Notes: a model not told the origin generated them from the sequence alone. DNA of 64,000 nucleotides from Planctomycetaceae bacterium (GCA_016793115.1 JAEUIN010000382.1:11385-75384), one strand, 5' to 3'. Shown: positions 40,990-50,507, counted from the stretch's first letter. Translations and numbers: made by a program.

Positions 40990-42552
40990 ATGCAATCCAT
41001 CATGCAATCCAGCCGCTTGATCGAGAACTCACAACGTCATCTGCCGTGGCTCCTCGCCGCGGTCGGCGTGTTGTTCGTCGACGGATTATCGACAATTCGC
41101 GCTTCTGGCGCGGAGCCGCCGCGAGCGTCGCGGCCGCCGAACATCGTGCTCGTGCTCGCCGACGACCTCGGCTACGGCGATCTCGCCTGTTACGGCAACT
41201 CGATCGTCAAGACGCCCCACCTCGATCGTTTCGCGCGCCAAGGCCTGCGGTTCACGCATTGCTACTCGGCCGGCGCGAATTGCTCTCCTTCGCGAGCCGG
41301 GCTCATGACCGGACGCACGCCGTATCGAGTCGGCATCCACAACCAGATTCCCTTCCTTTCGCCGATGCATCTGCGCTCCTCGGAAAAAACGATCGCCGCG
41401 CTGCTTCGCGACTTCGGTTACGACACTTGCCACGTCGGCAAGTGGCACCTCAACGGCATGTTCAATCTGCCCGGCCAGCCGCGGCCCGCCGATCACGGTT
41501 TCCGTCATTCCTTCGGCACTCAAAACAATTGCCTGCCGAACCATCGCAATCCGTACAACTTCGTCCGCAACGATATCCCGGTCGGCCCGCTCGCAGGCTA
41601 CGCTGCGCAGCTAGTCGTCGACGAGGCCGAGCGCTGGCTTCGCACCGACCGCGATCCGACAAAGCCGTTCTTTCTCTACGTCGCGTTTCACGAGCCCCAC
41701 GAACCGATTCGCTCGGCGCCCGAATTTGAAGCGATCTACGACTTCCCCGACGATCCGAGCCGCACGGCCTACTTCGCCAATATCTCACAGATGGATCATG
41801 CGTTCGGTCGGCTTGCGGCGCTGCTCGAAGAGTTGAACCTCGCCGCGGAAACGCTTGTCTGGTTCACGAGCGACAACGGCCCGGCTCGCACGAAATGGCA
41901 CAACGCCGGCTCGACCGCAGGCTTGCGCGACTACAAAGGAAGCGTCGCCGAAGGAGGGATTCGCGTACCCGGGCTGGTGCGTTGGCCCGGTCGGGTCGCG
42001 GCCGGCTCCGTAAGCGACGTTCCTGTCTGTGGGGTCGATTTCCTTCCCACGGCTTGCGCCGCGGCCGGCGTCGCCCCGCCGCACGACCGCACGCTCGACG
42101 GCACGAGTCTTTTGCCATTGTTCGGCGGCCAAGCGTTTCACCGTCGGCGTCCGCTCTATTGGCAATTCAACGACGCCTCAGGCGACCACGCGCTGGCGCT
42201 GCGCGACGGCGATTGGAAAGTCGTCGCGCGGCTTTCGTTGGCCAAGCCGCGGCAACGCGCGTCGATTACGGCCGAGGGAAACCACGTACTCCAGGAGGCG
42301 GAACCGGTCGGCTTCGAAATCTACAATCTCGCCGTCGATCCCGCTGAACAGCGGGATCTCACGGCCACCGAGCCCGCCCGAGCGGCGACGCTCCGCAAGC
42401 AACTCATCGACGCCTTTCACGAGGTCCGCGCGGAAACGCCCGTTTGGCCGACGTTTGACGACCCCGGCTATGAAGCGCCGCGGATCGAGTGGCCGAGCTA
42501 TGTCGCCAAACCGCTCACACCGCCGAAAGCGTCCGCGAAAGAGCGCGATTGA
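40990..42552 (+). CDS. secreted S1-family arylsulfatase (canonical CxPxR)
   Basis: PNIVLVLADDLGYGDLACYG and ANCSPSRAGLMTGR. ATG at 40990 (alternative at 41002). Confidence 0.85.
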   Translation: MQSIMQSSRLIENSQRHLPWLLAAVGVLFVDGLSTIRASGAEPPRASRPPNIVLVLADDLGYGDLACYGNSIVKTPHLDRFARQGLRFTHCYSAGANCSPSRAGLMTGRTPYRVGIHNQIPFLSPMHLRSSEKTIAALLRDFGYDTCHVGKWHLNGMFNLPGQPRPADHGFRHSFGTQNNCLPNHRNPYNFVRNDIPVGPLAGYAAQLVVDEAERWLRTDRDPTKPFFLYVAFHEPHEPIRSAPEFEAIYDFPDDPSRTAYFANISQMDHAFGRLAALLEELNLAAETLVWFTSDNGPARTKWHNAGSTAGLRDYKGSVAEGGIRVPGLVRWPGRVAAGSVSDVPVCGVDFLPTACAAAGVAPPHDRTLDGTSLLPLFGGQAFHRRRPLYWQFNDASGDHALALRDGDWKVVARLSLAKPRQRASITAEGNHVLQEAEPVGFEIYNLAVDPAEQRDLTATEPARAATLRKQLIDAFHEVRAETPVWPTFDDPGYEAPRIEWPSYVAKPLTPPKASAKERD

Positions 42553-42836
42553 CGCTCTCGGCCGCAGTCGCCCGCCGCGAACTAAACGACTTGTAATATA
42601 CGTCCGCCTTGGCGGCACCGGACCAAGCGACGTAAATAACCTTAGAGCGTCGCGGTCTGGGAGCATGGCCGTTTGCCACGCGGCCTGTGAACCCACCCAT
42701 CGCGGCGGCAAGCGAGTCCGGCGGAAGCTTTTTTGTCGGCCGGAATCGCGTTCCCCTTCTACAATGAGGGGGACTGGAACACCCGCCTCGCCGCCGGCCG
42801 GATCGTCGCCGGCCCACCACGTCGCCCGAATTCATC

Positions 42837-45800
42837 GTGACACAACTCCATACGCACGCTGCGACGGCTTCTTCCGACGCCGGGGAACCCTCCCCTTTGA
42901 TCGACCGCCTCAACGCCGCGATCGATCGCGCCGGCGAACTCCTGCCGGCGCAAGGACCGATCACGGCGTTCGTGTTCCTCAACACTCTGCAAGCGCTGGA
43001 AGATCTGCCGTTCGACGAAGGGCTGCGCCGCGGCGCGAAGTTGTTCGGGTTTCGCCCCTATCTGGGCGAGGAGCAATATCGCGAAAAACTGGCGCACGGG
43101 CGGATCCGTCATGCCGACCTGCGGGCCGTGCTGACCGACGATCTCGGCGAACAAGCCGCGACGCCCGTCTGTTGTCGGACGTCGCGATTCGATCTGCGAT
43201 TGGCGATGTTGGAGCACTCCCTACGCACCGGTCCGGCGGAGGAACTTCGCTGGTTCGTCGCCGAGACGGACGCCTTAAGCCGCATGCGTCCGGAAGTCGA
43301 CGCCGAAACGCGCGAACGCATCATCGAAGAAACCAAGCATTGGGTGATGCGCGACTTGCGCTCGGCTCACGCCCGAGAGCAAAACGGCGGTGCGCCGCAC
43401 TCCGAGACGCCCGAGCGATTTCTTTTCCGCGACTTGTTCGAGAAGCACGACGAAGCCGCGATGGAGCGTTGGGGCTCCGGGCGCTGGGAAGCGGCGACGC
43501 TGCAGGCTTTGTGGCGCATCTGCCGCGACGGCGTCGTCGGTCACGCGCCGGCTCGCTCGCTGTTTCAAGCCGTGCGGCATCGCGACTACCTGCTCGAAGC
43601 GACTAACGTCGACAGCGATTTGCTCGTCAACGAGATTTTGATCCGGTTCTGCGCAGCGTTTACCGATCAGGGCTTCGCCGATTGGGCCCTGCCGAATCGC
43701 AATCAAGGATTCTTTCGTTCGTTCTGTGTCGTGCACGGCCGGCCGGCAGGACCGCCCGAACCGTGGCAAGCCGGTCTCGCCGACGAGTTGCGCCGGCTCG
43801 AACATGAAGACATCGGCCCGCGCGAGTCCATCTTGGCGTCGCTCGATGAGTTGGGCGTCGGCGAACCGGAGTGGAACGACTTCATCGCCGCCTCGCTGAT
43901 CGCGCTCCGCGGCTGGGCCGGGCTCATCCGTCAAAACGAAGTGCGGGCCGACCGCGTGGCGATTCCCGTGCCGCAAGGGAGCCTCGTCGAGTTTCTCGCG
44001 GTTCGTTTAATCCTCGAGCGTTGGGCCCTGCGCTACGTCGCCAAGACGGCGCTCGGCTTCACCGGACCGCTGATCGAGCTGCGCGAAGCGGCGCTGGCCA
44101 ATCTTTATCGCCGCAACGGTTCGCAAGACGTGCAGCGGGCATTTCAGATCTTTCAGATCGCCCAAATCCGCGGCTGGAGCCCGCGCGAACTCCTGCAACT
44201 CTCTCGCCGCGATTGGGCGCAGTTGATCGATGAAATCGAAAGCTTTCCGGGGCTGGAACGTCGCCGCATCTTCCACCACGCTTTCGAGCGCCGCTTTCGC
44301 AACCAAGTGCTCGACGCGTTCACGCTCCACACCCGCAGCGCGCCGCGCACCGTGGCCGAGCCGAAATTCCAGTCGGTCTACTGCATCGACACGCGCGAAG
44401 AATCCTTCCGCCGCCACTTGGAGGAGATCGAGCCCGACGCCGAGACGTTCGGCGCGCCGGGCTTCTACGGCGTGGCGATGTACTATCGCGGCGCGGCCGA
44501 CGCGCACTTTTCGACGCTCTGCCCGATCGTCGTCAAACCGCAGCACTGGGTGACAGAAGAAGTCGTCTATTCGCTGGAAGAGAGCCATAAGCGGCGGGCA
44601 CGCACCCGCAAGGCGCTCGGCACGGCCTCGCATCAGGTTCACGTCGGCAGCCGCAGCATCGCCCGCGGCGCGCTCCTCACCGCGGGCGTCGGCGTGTTGG
44701 CCTCGATTCCGCTCGTGGCCCGGGTCTTGTTTCCCCGGCTCACGGCCCACATTCGCCGCAGCGCCGGGGCGTTCATGCAACCGCCGGTCGTCACGCGCTT
44801 GGTGCTCGAGCGCGTGCAAGACCCGCCGGGTCCGGAAGACGACCACGTCGGCTTCACGGTGCCGGAAATGGCCGAGCGCGCCGAGCGGTTTCTCCGCGAC
44901 ATCGGCCTGACGTACAACTTCGCGCGGCTCGTCTTCTTCTTCGGCCATGGTTCGTTTTGCTTGAACAATCCGCACAAATCCGCCTACGACTGCGGAGCCT
45001 GCTCCGGCGCGGCCGGCGCCCCCAATGCCCGAGCCCTCGCCGCGTTTCTCAATGATCGCCGCGTGCGCACGATTCTCCACGACCGCGGTCTCGCGATTCC
45101 CGACACCACGGTGTTCGTCGGCGGCTTGCACAACACTTGCGCCGACAAGATCACTTACTTCGACCTGGATTTGCTGCCGAAATCGCACCGCCGCGACTTC
45201 GAGTCGGCCGTCGGCACGCTGGAGCGGGTCTGCGAACGCAACGCCCATGAACGCTGCCGCCGCTTCGATTCCGCGCCGCTCGACATCTCGTTCCCGGCGG
45301 CGCGACGACACGTCGAAAATCGCTCGGAAGACCTGGCGCAAACCCGACCGGAGTTCGGCAACGCGACGAACGCCGTGTGTTACGTCGGCCGGCGCAGCCG
45401 CAACCGCGGGCTGTATCTTGATCGCCGCTGCTTCATGAACTCCTACGACCCGACGCAGGACGACAAAGACTGCACGATTCTCGGGAGAATTCTCTCGGCC
45501 GCCGTGCCGGTGTGCGAAGGGATCAACCTGCAATACTATTTCTCCTACGTCGATTCGCCCGGCTGGGGGAGCGGCACCAAGTTGCCGCACAACGTGACGT
45601 CGCTGTTGGGCGTGATGGACGGCGCGGCAAGCGATCTGCGTACCGGACTTCCTTGGCAAGGCGTGGAAATCCACGAACCGCTCCGCTGTCTCTTCATTTT
45701 GGAGACGACGCCGGAGGGAATTCTCGGCATCATGGAGCGCAATCCGGTCGTCGGCAAAATCTTGCGCAACGGCTGGAGCCAGCTCGCCGTGATCGATCCG

Positions 45801-45944
45801 CACTCGCCGCAAATCCAGGTCTATCGCAACGGCCGCTTCGAGCCGTATACGCCGGAGATCGACGAATTGCCCCGCTCGCCGAGTTCGACCGATTGGTATC
45901 GCGGCTGGCGCGAGCACCTTGAGTTCGCCGTCATCGATCCGTAG
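42837..45944 (+). CDS. dabA: DUF2309 / DabA-like subunit of a DAB-type inorganic carbon pump
   Basis: 1035 aa with a GTG start. N-terminal [13 protein letters not shown]. Putative Zn-site residues C516-x-D518 (YCIDTRE) and H704-x14-C719 (GHGSFC...YDCGAC). Followed by a NuoL-like gene. Confidence 0.8.
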
Positions 45945-45993
45945 TTTGCGTCGCCGCCCGTCACTCGCATTCGCCCGACGACTTGATTGCCGC

Positions 45994-47493
45994 ATGAACT
46001 ATCTCATTCAACGCCTCGCCGACGCCGCCGACATGGAAACCGGCGCGTTTGTGCGCGGGCTGATCACGTTTTTCGGCGAACTGGTCGTCGCGGCGCCGAC
46101 CATCTTGGTGTTGCTGCTCGGACTCACCTCGCTGATCGGCCGGCCGTTTCGCGAACGCACGATCGGCCGTTTGGTGCACATCGCCGTCGGCGTCGGCCTT
46201 GCGGCGGCGGTCGTCTTGCTGTTGCTGATGATCGGCCTCGATCGGCGGCATGAGGCGATCCGGCTCGGCAACTGGGTGAACATCGAAAGCCATTCGCTGA
46301 CGCACCATTTCCACTACCACTTCGCCATCAAGTTCCTCTTCGATCGCCTGTCGGTCCCGTTCGTGATCCTGACGTTCGTGCTCTGCGGCACGATCGGCCA
46401 GTTCGGCATTAAATACATGCACCGCGAAGCCGGCTTCAACCGGTTCTTCGCGCTCTACGCCCTCTTCATGCTCGGCATGATCGTGACCTCGCTGGCCGGC
46501 ACGATCGAGACGCTCTTCGCCGGCTGGGAACTTGTCGGCCTCTCCAGCGCGCTGCTGGTGGCGTTCTATCACGAACGGCGAGCGCCGGTCGCCAACGGGC
46601 TCCGCGTCTGGATCGTCTATCGCGTGTCCGACGCCGCGCTGTTGTTCGCCTCCGTGGCTCTACACCATATGCGCGGCGGCGGCGACTTCGATCAATTCCT
46701 CGGCAGCGTCTCCTGGCCGGAAGGCGTCGCCATGCTCTCGCACGGTCAAGCGGTGCTGGTCGGCTCGCTGCTGCTCATCGCCGCGGCCGGCAAATCGGCG
46801 CTCGTCCCCTTCTCCGGCTGGCTGCCGCGCGCGATGGAAGGCCCGACCCCGTCGAGCGCAGTTTTCTACGGCGCGCTCTCGGTCCACCTCGGCGCGTTCT
46901 TGTTGCTCCGCTGCTCGCCCATCTTGGAACTCAGCACCGGCTTGAGCGTGGTCGTCGTCGTTCTGGGGCTCGTCTCGTCGATGTTCTCGGCCTTCGCCGG
47001 ACGCGTGCAAACCGACATCAAAAGCGCGCTGTCGTTCGCTTCGCTCACGCAAGTCGGCATCATCGTCGCCGAAATCGGCGCGGCCTCGCTGATCTCGATT
47101 CACTACAGCAAGTCGGCGGGCCAATTCCTCCGTTATCTCACGCTAATCCACATTCTCGGCCACGCCTGCCTGCGCACGCTGCAGTTCGTACGCGCTCCCA
47201 CGCTGCTGCACGACTATCGGCTGTTGGAGAACGCGCTCGGTCGCTATTTGCCGCACGAAACCACGCTCGCCGAGCGCATCTTGCCGCCCGGCACGCGCAC
47301 CTGGTTCTATCGATTCGCGCTCGAACGCGGTTATCTCGACACCGTGCTGGCGACGCTCTTCGTGCGGCCGGTGTTGTTCGTGTTCCGCGCTTGCGATCGC
47401 GTCGAGCGCTCCTGGCTGCAAAAGCTGTCCGGCGAACCGCAACGCGACGACGCCGCCCCCGTCTCGACCGGCACCCTTGACGACTTGGCATGA
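45994..47493 (+). CDS. dabB: NuoL/MrpA-like proton-conducting membrane subunit (DabB-like)
   Basis: Canonical antiporter-like motifs [24 protein letters not shown] and [18 protein letters not shown] at 45994. Confidence 0.8.
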
Positions 47494-49010
47494 ACGAGCT
47501 GCATTTTCCGTTTATCGAACTCGCCGTCGTGATCCCGCTCGTCGGGTCGGCGCTTGTCGCACGCGTGCGCGACCCTCAACGAGCCCTCCGCTGCTCGGTC
47601 GCGCTGACCGGCCTGACGTTCCTCGCGGCCGTGGCCGCTTGGCTCGACTACGGCTGGCTGCAATCGGCGCTGAAGTCGGGCGAATACGTGCTCGAAGCGC
47701 ACGATCGCTGGCATCTCATGCAGCGGCTGACCAACCGCGAACTCTTCACGATCGACCAACTCAGCGCCCCGTTGCTGCCGCTGGGCGCCTTGCTCTACTT
47801 TCTCACTTCGGTCGCCACGCTCCGCACGAAGCTCAACCGCGTGTCGTTTACGTCGACGCTCGCTTCCGAAGCCGTGCTTTTGGCCACGTTCGCCACCAAC
47901 GTCTCCTGGCTCATCATCGCCTTGCTGATCGTCGGCGCGGCGCCGCCCTATTTCGAACTCCGCGCTCGCGGCTCCAACGGCCGCGTCTACGCCCTGCATA
48001 TGCTGCTCTTCACCGTGCTGCTTGTCGCCGGCTGGGTCGGCGTGCAGGCCGATCAAACGGCCGGCCGCGCTCCCTGGGTCGCCTCGATCGCGCTCCTAGC
48101 GGCCATGCTCATCCGCGGCGGCGTGTTTCCTTTTCACACTTGGATGATCGACCTCTTCCAACGCGCCAGCTTCGGCACGGCGCTGTTGTTCGTCACGCCG
48201 ATGGTCGGGGCCTACGGCGCGATTCGCCTCGTCCTCCCCTACGCTCCCGACGCCGTGCTCCGCAGCCTCGGCATGGTCTCGCTGTTCACGGCCGTCTACG
48301 CCGCCGGCATGGCGCTCGTGCAGCGCGAAGCTCGTCGCTTCTTTTGCTACATCCTGCTCAGCCACTCGGCGCTCGTCTTCGTCGGGCTCGAGATGGTCAA
48401 ACCGGTCGGCATGACCGGCGCTTTGTGCGTCTGGCTCTCCGTCGGCCTCTCGCTCGGCGGCTTCGGCCTTACGCTCCGCGCCCTGGAAGCCCGCCGCGGC
48501 CGGCTGCTGCTCGTCGACTATCAAGGGCTCTACGAACACACGCCGTCGCTTGCGGTCTGCTTCGTGCTCACCGGACTCGCCAGCGTCGGCTTCCCCGGCA
48601 CCATCGGCTTCATCGGCGCCGAACTCTTGGTCGACGGCGCGGTGCAGACCTATCCCTCCGTCGGCCTCGCCGTCGTCGTCGCCGCCGCTCTCAACGGCAT
48701 CGCACTCGTGCGGGCCTACTTCCTCCTCTTCACCGGCACGCGTTACCAATCGAGCATCGCTCTCGGTATCGTTCTGCGCGAGCGCTTGGCCATGCTCACG
48801 TTCATGGCTCTGATCTTCATCGGCGGCTTCGTTCCGCAATGGGGCGTGCTGGCCCGCTACCACGCCGCCGAGGAAGTGCTCGAAGTTCACGACAGGACGT
48901 CGCTCGAACACGACGACGAACACGACGACGAGCATTCCGACGACGACTCGGACGACGACGACCACGAGCACGAAGACGACGAGTGGTATCTCGATTATCT
49001 CGACGACTAG
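47490..49010 (+). CDS. second, divergent NuoM/NuoN-like antiporter-type membrane subunit with poly-Asp/His tail
   Basis: ATGA start/stop overlap with dabB. Complex-I subunit-4-like fold ([27 protein letters not shown]). C-terminal [34 protein letters not shown]. Confidence 0.7.
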
Positions 49011-49016
49011 CCGCGG

Positions 49017-50309
49017 CTACGTCGCCGCCTTCGCACGGATCGCTTCCAACACCTCGTCGTCACTCGCCAAAGGCGAGGGCGCCACGGCCCGCAGCGGAAT
49101 CGGCACCTCGTCCATCCGGTAGGCCGTGCCGCGGCGGTGCAGGCCGTAGACGGCCGTGGTGAATTGCACGTCGGCCGGCAGCAAACGATCGGCCCCCGGA
49201 TAGTCGAGCGCGATCGTCGGAATCGTCTTCAAATAGGCCCGCGCCTCGGGCGAAAGCGTTTGCGTCTCCGCGCTGCCGACCAGCAAACAGGCGTCGACTT
49301 CGCGCCGCCTAAGCAGTTCATCGGCCGAGTATTCCCCCGGGCTATAGCGCGGGTAGCCGGCCGCGAGGCTCACGCTAAACGGAAACCCGGTCTGCCACGT
49401 CAGCACGCTGTCGGCCCCGGCCACGTCGCCGTAGATCCGCATCCGCCGCGCGTAGAACCGCGTATGGTCATTCAGTTCGGTCGTGAGCCGCAGCAGCGCC
49501 TCGACGCCGGCATGCCCGTTGCGCCCAAGCGACAAGCCGCGGCCGAAGAAGAACACGCCCGAGCGACAAGCTTTGAGTTGCGCGGCCAAGTCTCCTAGTA
49601 CGTCGATCGGCACGCCGCCGACCTCGCTCGTGCCGAGTTCGACCCCTTTCACCAGCGCCCGCAGCGCCCAGAGCACTTCGAAATCGCTCGACGGCCGAAT
49701 CCGCACGAATTGGTCGGCCCGCTCGGTCGTCTTGGTTTCTTGAATGTCGAACACGATCAGCTTCCGTCCGGCGCGACCTTGCGGCACGAACTGTCCCCGC
49801 GGTTCGAGCGAGTAGCGCTCCATGTGCCGGGGATGGCTCACCGCCGGGTTCGCACCCCAGTAGATCACCAAGTCGGCCCGGTTCCGCACTTCGCCGAGCG
49901 AGCAAGTCGACTCCCCGACCGTCTGCAAGGCGATGATCGAATTGCCGTGACAGGTCGAGGCCGTCGTATCGATGACCGCGCCGATCGTATCGGCCAAATG
50001 CACCGCGGCCCGATGACCCGGCACGCTGCTCCGCGACAACCCGTAGACGAGCGGCAACTTCGCCGCGCGCAAGATCCGCGCCGCCTCTGCCGCGGCCACG
50101 TCCAGCGTCGCCGCTTGGCCGCGCACGAGAATCGGCTCCGCCGGCGGCGGCACGTTGTGCTTCGCGAACCAGGCCGCCTGCAACGCGCAGTTCGACTCCA
50201 TCGCCGTAATCCGACCCCCCTCGACCACCGCGCGCAAGTCGTCGCAAACGCACCCGCAAACGGTACATGCGACGTCTTCGACGATCCTTCGAGCGCTATT
50301 CACGACCAT
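49017..50309 (-). CDS. formylmethanofuran dehydrogenase subunit B-like (FwdB/FhcB family) protein
   Basis: N-terminal VACTVCGCVCDDL cysteine motif and a molybdopterin-oxidoreductase-like body (IYWGANPAVSHPRH). ATG at 50309. Stop is 6 bp from the stop of the convergent 47490-49010 gene. Confidence 0.55.
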   Translation of the reverse strand: MVVNSARRIVEDVACTVCGCVCDDLRAVVEGGRITAMESNCALQAAWFAKHNVPPPAEPILVRGQAATLDVAAAEAARILRAAKLPLVYGLSRSSVPGHRAAVHLADTIGAVIDTTASTCHGNSIIALQTVGESTCSLGEVRNRADLVIYWGANPAVSHPRHMERYSLEPRGQFVPQGRAGRKLIVFDIQETKTTERADQFVRIRPSSDFEVLWALRALVKGVELGTSEVGGVPIDVLGDLAAQLKACRSGVFFFGRGLSLGRNGHAGVEALLRLTTELNDHTRFYARRMRIYGDVAGADSVLTWQTGFPFSVSLAAGYPRYSPGEYSADELLRRREVDACLLVGSAETQTLSPEARAYLKTIPTIALDYPGADRLLPADVQFTTAVYGLHRRGTAYRMDEVPIPLRAVAPSPLASDDEVLEAIRAKAAT

Positions 50310-50313
50310 TCGT

Positions 50314-50507
50314 CCGGAGAAGGGAGATAAGGAGATGGGGAGGAGATGTCGGGGATAAGAAAGTAAGTGTGAGCGAGAGGAGCAGACTTCAGACGGAGAT
50401 ATCGCTGGGACTAACAAACCGGAGGACGTACATGGAAAACATAACTCCAGACACCCATCCTCCTATCCCCTCCGATCCCCTCCGATCCCCTGATCCCCTT
50501 TCTCCGG
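50314..50507. repeat. G-tract/C-tract inverted-arm intercistronic element, copy 1
   Basis: Left arm CCGGAGAAGGGAGATAAGGAGATGGGGAGGAGATGTCGGGGAT. The reverse complement of the right arm is CCGGAGAAAGGGGATCAGGGGATCGGAGGGGATCGGAGGGGATAGGAGGATGGG. About 95-bp AT-richer core. Confidence 0.75.

Follow-up and report, generated by a model that had tools for sequence, protein, structure and literature searches.

A DAB-type three-gene operon from a planctomycete, with a full-length NuoM-type protein as the probable counterpart of DabC

The three genes of the operon

We analyzed a stretch of 64,000 nucleotides from a Planctomycetaceae bacterium (GCA_016793115.1 JAEUIN010000382.1:11385-75384), hereafter called the window, and all coordinates given below are positions in it. 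The segment from 42837 to 49010 is occupied by three open reading frames (ORFs) on the + strand, namely, dabA, dabB, and a third gene (“dabM”) for a NuoM-type membrane protein, an order that we abbreviate as A-B-M. These genes probably constitute a self-contained operon for a vectorial carbonic anhydrase (CA) of the DAB type with coupling to the proton motive force (PMF), and the third protein would be a long form of DabC, the small partner subunit known from DAB1.

The first gene, dabA (42837-45944, +), would encode the beta-CA-like catalytic subunit. Its product matches PF10070 from residue 29 to residue 980, covering profile positions 1-746 of 747 (E 1.2e-232), is homologous to DabA2 from Halothiobacillus neapolitanus (PDB 9rd0_A, E 1.6e-70), and is the only DabA in its genome. 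A preliminary description of this DNA had noticed in this DUF2309 protein a Cys-x-Asp and a His-x14-Cys arrangement like the zinc site of DabA, and the HMMER alignment with 9rd0 bears it out. The window motif YCIDTRE is aligned with FCIDVRS of DabA2 and the region from H704 to C719 with GHGSSTTNNPHRAGLDCGAC, so that C516 and D518 (codons at 44382-44390, +, aligned to CID) and H704 and C719 (44946-44993, +, aligned to GHGS...DCGAC) are confirmed, at the level of sequence, as positions homologous to the four zinc ligands. These residues and R520 are invariant in all 51 DabA sequences of every subtype that we collected, the characterized DAB1, DAB2, and MpsAB proteins included. The gene does start with GTG and encode 1035 amino acids, as had been described, but it is not unusually long, a notion ruled out by DabA1 (1046 amino acids) and by the orthologues (1036-1056 amino acids).

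Residues 606-634 (44652-44738, +) form a predicted hydrophobic helix-loop-helix that aligns with the membrane-inserted finger, or elbow hairpin, of DabA2. In DAB2, Glu444 at the tip of this finger stands in for K399/D400 of NuoL, and the substitutions E444A and E444Q kill the activity. The window protein has an alanine in the E444 column and no acidic residue in the whole hairpin. An acidic residue occupies this column in 24 of 25 sequences of the superclade that contains DAB1 and DAB2, while glutamate is found in 0 of 26 sequences of the superclade of the window. The operon is part of a deep DAB lineage that does not have the finger glutamate essential in DAB2.

As a separate observation, the contig of the closest relative (L001, GCA_049840675.1) has its dabA split over at least five frames (L001:3332-6482) and an intact dabB and third gene; it may contain assembly frameshifts or a decaying dabA.

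The second gene, dabB (46033-47493, +), encodes a NuoL-type protein of 486 amino acids if read from the ATG at 46033, with alternative starts at 45994 and 45919. A comparison of six orthologues suggests that the start is probably the ATG at 46033 (or 45994) rather than the TTG at 45919, which leaves a gap of 49-88 nucleotides and no overlap between dabA and dabB. As the preliminary description had it, this is a NuoL-like DabB: it matches PF00662 and, of the 294 positions of PF00361, the first two thirds (6-198), its best NCBIfam models are those of NuoL, and it contains the motif QTDIKS. The residues E144, D178, K229, H334, and H338 of NuoL are all retained, including the glutamate of transmembrane helix 5 (TM5) and the lysine of TM7. 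The protein resembles NuoL from TM1 to about TM11, and the similarity ends near residue 390-400, after which there is a conserved, non-hydrophobic region of about 90 amino acids. The AlphaFold2 (AF2) model of DabB superposes on NuoL over about 385 columns, although, having been built from only 7 sequences, it has a mean predicted local distance difference test (pLDDT) score of 69 and is unreliable past residue ~390. The top PDB match is NuoL, with 123 bits versus 70 bits for DabB2.

The third gene (47490-49010, +) encodes 506 amino acids and overlaps dabB by four nucleotides (47490-47493, +), where the sequence reads ATGA, the TGA stop codon of dabB sharing letters with the ATG of the third ORF. 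This overlap, together with the second antiporter-like gene that it introduces, had been described before and is directly readable in the sequence; a 4-nt overlap between the two genes is also present in four other loci (L001, L003, L068, and L069).

The third subunit and its relation to DabC

The third protein is a member of the NuoM family. It matches the NDH_I_M model TIGR01972 from residue 10 to residue 461, while PF00361 is matched only over its last two thirds (profile positions 82-292 of 294), and an hhalign comparison with canonical NuoM extends over the full length (probability 100%, E 3e-57). The AF2 model contains 14 helices (pLDDT 83, predicted TM-score 0.83, with a tail of pLDDT <50), and Foldseek returns chains of NuoM, NdhD, and MrpD for it at TM-scores between 0.75 and 0.78, among them NuoM 8e9i_M (0.77, E 9e-18) and NdhD3 (0.76). 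The best PDB match by sequence is NdhD3 (6tjv; E 4.3e-21, 78.5 bits, versus 73.3 for mycobacterial NuoM), but the score margin is small and the fold scores are equal, and this likeness is an analogy rather than a demonstrated descent.

The membrane relay of canonical NuoM is largely gone. With reference to E. coli NuoM, three of the four canonical charged residues are lost, as E144 is replaced by I147, K234 by R209, and K265 by M238; the position of E407 is occupied by A377, and a glutamate, E378, follows at +1. The same replacements extend through the family, which has isoleucine, alanine, or serine at E144 and arginine at K234 in 30 of 31 sequences. At K265, there is methionine, isoleucine, or leucine in close orthologues and glutamine, arginine, or histidine in more distant ones, and at E407, close orthologues have alanine, threonine, or glycine, followed one position later by the invariant E378. 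Across the orthologues, D382 is also nearly invariant. The NuoM histidines H241 and H322 are retained in close orthologues, where they correspond to H216 and H292, and H322 is replaced by glutamine or asparagine in divergent ones. The host genome's own NuoM proteins keep all four relay residues.

To compare this family with DabC, we built a profile from 11 DabC sequences of 248-261 amino acids, taken from 11 gammaproteobacterial DAB1 loci. In hhalign, this profile matches the third-protein family over residues 221-423 (probability 92.6%, E 4.7e-7) and also matches canonical NuoM, and it finds no match in NuoN, NuoL, or DabB. Since the matches are restricted in this manner, DabC is, judging from the profiles, the C-terminal half of a NuoM-type protein, and the third gene of the window is its full-length counterpart.

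A protein of intermediate size was also observed. In one locus (L015:7469-8524, G240:C55), a gene for a membrane protein of 351 amino acids starts 7 nucleotides after dabB, and its product matches only residues 195-423 of the third protein of the window, standing between the NuoM-like form and the DabC of 250 amino acids.

The end of the third protein is peculiar in composition. Its last ~35 residues (48900-49007, +, residues ~471-506, predicted to be disordered) are almost all aspartate, glutamate, or histidine. Acidic tails are common among the orthologues, and the form rich in aspartate and histidine is found only in the closest relatives, for which reason we dismissed it as a functional element of the whole family. 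If the protein is oriented like NuoM, its tail would lie on the periplasmic side, where binding of metals or protons is possible.

Lineage, linkage, and genomic context

In order to place the operon, we took as DAB1 reference a metagenome-assembled genome of Halothiobacillus sp. whose DabA2 is 93% identical to 9rd0, H. neapolitanus itself being missing from the output of the genome scan. Its DAB1 locus encodes, in this order, DabB1 (559 amino acids), DabC (248), DabA1 (1046), PII, and CbbQ, and ten further gammaproteobacterial DAB1 loci were recovered. The tree of the 51 DabA sequences has two sides, separated by a split with 100% support in the Shimodaira–Hasegawa-like approximate likelihood ratio test (SH-aLRT). 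One side contains DAB1 (gene order B-C-A), DabA2-like proteins, and planctomycete B-A operons; the other contains the window, all A-B-M operons, gammaproteobacterial A-B-M and M-A-B-M-M loci, a locus with fused B and M genes, and planctomycete A-B pairs. In a tree of PF00361 proteins, the DabB proteins of the window type group in a clade of their own (99%), distinct from that of DabB1 and DabB2 (98%), both within the NuoL group, which is consistent with the higher score of the window DabB against NuoL than against DabB2. The third proteins make up a single clade (100%) on a long stem, with genuine NuoM as its sister. Thus, DabA and DabB of the window fall outside the DabA1 and DabB1 clades, and, as far as the trees go, the operon belongs to a deep A-B-M lineage that is separate from both DAB1 and DAB2.

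The association of the three genes is not a product of chance. Of 301 evenly sampled Planctomycetota genomes, 41 encode a DabA, and orthologues of the third gene (threshold E <= 1e-60) were found in 16. All 16 have it about 1.5 kb downstream of a long dabA, without a change of contig or strand, and four more genomes with a long DabA have more divergent copies of the third gene in the same position. Among six contigs retrieved through individual orthologues, five have the order DabA (1036-1056 amino acids where intact), DabB (465-482), and M (477-508), and given that their flanks are unrelated, the module consists of the three genes alone. Overall, the third gene is linked to dabA in 21 of the 22 contexts examined, and the tight linkage of a second antiporter-like gene is supported by this synteny, by the ATGA overlap, and by the natural DabB-M fusion described below. 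Close orthologues of the third protein number in the hundreds, with 54-71% identity among the best 120, and those that carry a source organism name are all annotated as planctomycete.

Additional arrangements were found in gammaproteobacteria. In one of them, directly downstream of a dabA for 1098 amino acids, a single frame of 1048 amino acids (L042:4790-7933, G304:C44) comprises a DabB module (residues 14-415) and a NuoM module (549-1030). This fusion supports the idea that DabB and the NuoM-type subunit would be physically present in one complex. Apparent DabB-M fusions in three other genomes (G060, G208, and G145; frames of 676-967 amino acids) were rejected as artifacts of stop-free frames in high-GC DNA, because the matches begin deep within the frame and dabB lies in another frame.

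Four antiporter-like genes accompany dabA in other gammaproteobacterial loci (L047 in G398:C10, L048 in G347:C1, and also L051), which are arranged as M, DabA, DabB, M, M. Of the M proteins, the one encoded directly after dabB presents the replacements E to A/I and K to R, while the other two keep the complete E/K/K/E set; as only the M adjacent to DabB is degenerate, the degenerate state is tied to this position. These loci suggest a much larger membrane arm, similar to those of complex I or Mrp and capped by DabA. Apart from these gammaproteobacteria, one relative (L003:10369-17458) has, after its A-B-M operon and a PTS-EIIA-like gene, clustered Proton_antipo_M, NADHdh, Complex1_49kDa, and Fe-S genes, a module resembling Mbh/Hyf or complex I.

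In the window, a sulfatase ORF ends at 42552, upstream of dabA, leaving an intergenic region of 284 bp (42553-42836, +) that presumably contains the dabA promoter. In this region, sigma-70-like sites were not above chance and no Rfam family was found, and the promoter and terminator scans in general gave nothing above chance. The operon is surrounded by PSCyt1/PSCyt2/PSD1, DUF1501, and sulfatase genes. On the other side, a convergent gene (49017-50417, −) encodes a formylmethanofuran dehydrogenase subunit B of the FhcB type (TIGR03129, 419.6 bits, above the cut-off); its stop codon is 6 bp from the end of the operon, it stands alone in the window, and it is absent beside the orthologous operons of the other genomes examined.

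The host assembly has 7.3 Mb in 411 contigs, and near-identical sequences are found in wastewater, activated-sludge, and biofilm metagenomes. On other contigs, it has nuoL-M-N-type gene sets, two of them complete (C288 and C154) and one cut (C370), and there are two ordinary beta-CA genes. No gene for the large subunit of RuBisCO was found in the genome, which excludes a CO2-concentrating mechanism of the carboxysome type. By analogy with MpsAB in Staphylococcus, the operon would likely serve carboxylation reactions by trapping CO2 as bicarbonate at times of CO2 scarcity. One of the two beta-CA domains (G000:C227:27223-27711) lies within an open frame of 784 amino acids, so that a fusion with another domain, such as a SulP-type transporter, is possible.

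Interpretation and comparison with known systems

The preliminary description had presented three genes as a departure from the known two-gene DAB/MpsAB systems. This does not hold, given that DAB1 is already known as a DabABC system (bioRxiv 10.64898/2026.05.01.722082) and that the layout of the window was listed in 2017 (PMC5700660). The DAB1 locus of H. neapolitanus has three genes, encoding DabA1 (1046 amino acids), DabB1 (559 amino acids), and a small membrane protein (10.1101/476713). A cryo-electron microscopy preprint on DAB1 from Thermocrinis albus describes a heterotrimer of DabA, DabB, and DabC, in which the half-size NuoM-like DabC superposes on the helices of NuoM that lie beside NuoL, has hydrophobic residues at the relay positions and no water chain, and was judged non-catalytic, even though it is needed in vivo (10.64898/2026.05.01.722082). 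In their COGNAT study, Klimchuk et al. reported ybcC (COG3002/DUF2309) upstream of a nuoL homologue as “clade C”, with neighborhoods that frequently hold a COG1008 (NuoM) gene and a SulP gene (PMC5700660). We found no paper analyzing the NuoM-type gene or assaying any member of the A-B-M class.

Based on these homologies, we infer that the three proteins would form a complex working along the following lines. DabA would hydrate CO2 at the buried beta-CA-like zinc site made up of C516, D518, H704, and C719, and its hairpin (~606-634) would be inserted in the membrane next to DabB. Through the pair formed by the TM5 glutamate and the TM7 lysine, DabB would conduct the protons that make the hydration one-directional. 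The third subunit would sit beside DabB, as NuoM does beside NuoL and DabC beside DabB, and it would most likely be a structural or allosteric partner, and not a second pump, because its relay residues are replaced (E to I, K to R, and K to M). We thus consider it likely that this subunit, a NuoM-type protein of full length whose proton path is degenerate, is equivalent to DabC, and the earlier proposal of a minimal complex I arm with two pumps is weakened accordingly by the loss of the TM5 glutamate and the change of the lysines of TM7 and TM8 to arginine and methionine.

Several points weigh against this interpretation. The DabC profile matches canonical NuoM as well as it matches the third-protein family (94.5%, E 7.7e-8), so that no special descent of DabC and this family from one another is shown. 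The DabA finger does not have the glutamate essential in DAB2, and DabB is NuoL-like only to about TM11, so that coupling may differ from that of DAB1 and DAB2. In addition, polar residues of the membrane core of the third subunit (R209, H216, D221, H292, E378, and D382) are invariant, and the subunit may still participate in ion transfer. The linkage has one exception, a planctomycete genome of 8.5 Mb (G454) in which three long dabA, two dabB, and one M gene are dispersed over four loci: a B-M pair follows fliOPQR-flhB, an A-B pair is convergent with a second dabA, and another dabA stands alone (L002, L066, and L067). Finally, the transcript evidence consists of three short contigs from RNA-labelled runs, none of which spans a gene junction. 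One of them, of 260 nt, comes from a wastewater metatranscriptome and lies in dabB, and the other two, in dabB and in the third gene, are from runs of uncertain type.

The invariant core residues raise the question of whether the third subunit could be an active ion-conducting module, so that DabB and the NuoM-like protein would each move an ion and provide more drive per CO2. The complete 14-helix fold and the invariance of R209, H216, H292, E378, and D382 would fit such a role, as would the proposal of the COGNAT authors that more membrane subunits mean more ions moved (PMC5700660) and the fact that gammaproteobacterial relatives add NuoM genes with the full E/K/K/E set. Nevertheless, we consider this alternative unlikely, given that the TM5 position is hydrophobic, that the arginine in TM7 is no proton carrier at physiological pH, that the TM8 lysine is gone, and that the short homologue DabC has no water chain and was judged non-catalytic.

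A different possibility is that DabB relies on the third subunit for the rest of its proton path, with TM12 of the latter (E378/D382) providing the periplasmic half-channel. In DAB2, this half-channel is formed by TM12-13 of DabB together with E444 of DabA, and both elements are affected in the window, since the similarity of DabB to NuoL ends near residue 390-400 and the equivalent of E444 is missing throughout the superclade of the window, in contrast to the 24 of 25 acidic residues in the other superclade; the invariant E378 and the nearly invariant D382 could take their place. This alternative is purely inferential, however, and it concerns a region of DabB that was modelled at low confidence. 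Moreover, two planctomycete A-B members of the same superclade (L013 and L016) have no third subunit, which is thus not indispensable to the whole lineage, and we regard the proposal as quite improbable. It is barely credible, in turn, that the complex takes up no CO2 and instead transports cations (Na+/H+) or pumps ions at the expense of another reaction of DabA, as could be argued from the early work on MpsA and the COGNAT proposal of membrane-potential generation or an unknown exergonic reaction (PMC5700660), because the four ligands and the neighboring arginine are invariant in a set that includes the assayed DAB1, DAB2, and MpsAB, and the characterized homologues hydrate CO2 and rescue CA-free strains.

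We therefore keep the reading of the third subunit as a long-form DabC partner. There is also an evolutionary scenario that we offer tentatively and hold to be rather doubtful. A-B-M would be the least reduced form of DAB, a NuoL-NuoM pair that captured a beta-CA, in which the NuoM-like subunit would be mechanistically required through E378/D382 on a broken TM12. These residues would provide the stretch of the proton path for which DAB1 and DAB2 use the distal DabB helices and the finger glutamate of DabA. DabC, the form of 351 amino acids, and the two-gene DABs would be successive reductions, and the M-A-B-M-M loci would be expansions with extra pumping subunits.

Both DAB structures published in 2026, which bear on how these systems run a CA in one direction, come from one side of the DabA tree. 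The operon of the window belongs to the other side and has a full-size NuoM-type partner where DAB1 has an essential half-size DabC, so that a comparison could reveal the origin of DabC, which parts of the proton path are required, and how complex I modules were recruited. The distribution of the genes indicates that an energized system for trapping CO2 is present in many heterotrophic planctomycetes of wastewater and other habitats. As the layout was already catalogued in 2017 and is widespread, the operon is an ordinary representative of an uncharacterized class.

Among the known systems, the proton-pumping proteins NuoM, NdhD, and MrpD share the 14-helix fold with the third subunit but not its residue pattern, as the set E144/K234/K265/E407 is theirs alone. 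The same can be said of the NuoL-NuoM pair of complex I, which resembles both membrane subunits in fold, whereas the operon of the window has neither redox subunits nor small membrane subunits, and its NuoM-type protein has lost three of the four relay residues. The cyanobacterial CO2-uptake module NDH-1MS (CupA-NdhF3-NdhD3, 6tjv) also places a CO2-hydrating protein on a pair of NuoL-type and NuoM-type subunits, although CupA is unrelated to DabA and belongs to a redox-driven complex. Clade C of the COGNAT study agrees with the window in having dabA upstream of a nuoL homologue and a NuoM gene nearby, and our DabA tree reproduces its split by gene order; in contrast, the operon of the window is not accompanied by SulP, a frequent neighbor in clade C. 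The 2017 study listed neighborhoods only, at a time when the function of DabA was unknown, and is silent on the state of the NuoM-like protein, DabC, the finger glutamate, and the truncation of DabB (PMC5700660).

The two-gene systems DAB2 of H. neapolitanus and MpsAB of Staphylococcus aureus share with the window the fold and ligands of DabA, the membrane-inserted hairpin, a NuoL-like partner, the presumed coupling to the PMF, and a probable role in supplying bicarbonate in heterotrophs. They differ in having two genes, ordered B then A in the relatives sampled, and DabA2 is shorter (827 amino acids). DabB2 has 15 helices and relies on E444 of DabA2, whereas the window has a third subunit, a shorter NuoL-like core in DabB, and no finger glutamate. 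DAB1 differs as well, since its DabC has about 250 amino acids and no Pfam domain, compared with a subunit of 506 amino acids that matches PF00361, its gene order is B-C-A, with dabC between dabB and dabA, instead of A-B-M, DabA1 keeps the finger glutamate that the window protein does not have, and its locus adjoins PII, cbbQ, and carboxysome genes that do not accompany the operon of the window. Nevertheless, DAB1 and the window have in common three subunits, of which DabA has about 1040 amino acids and an identical zinc site, DabB is NuoL-type, and the third is related to NuoM and has lost proton-relay residues.

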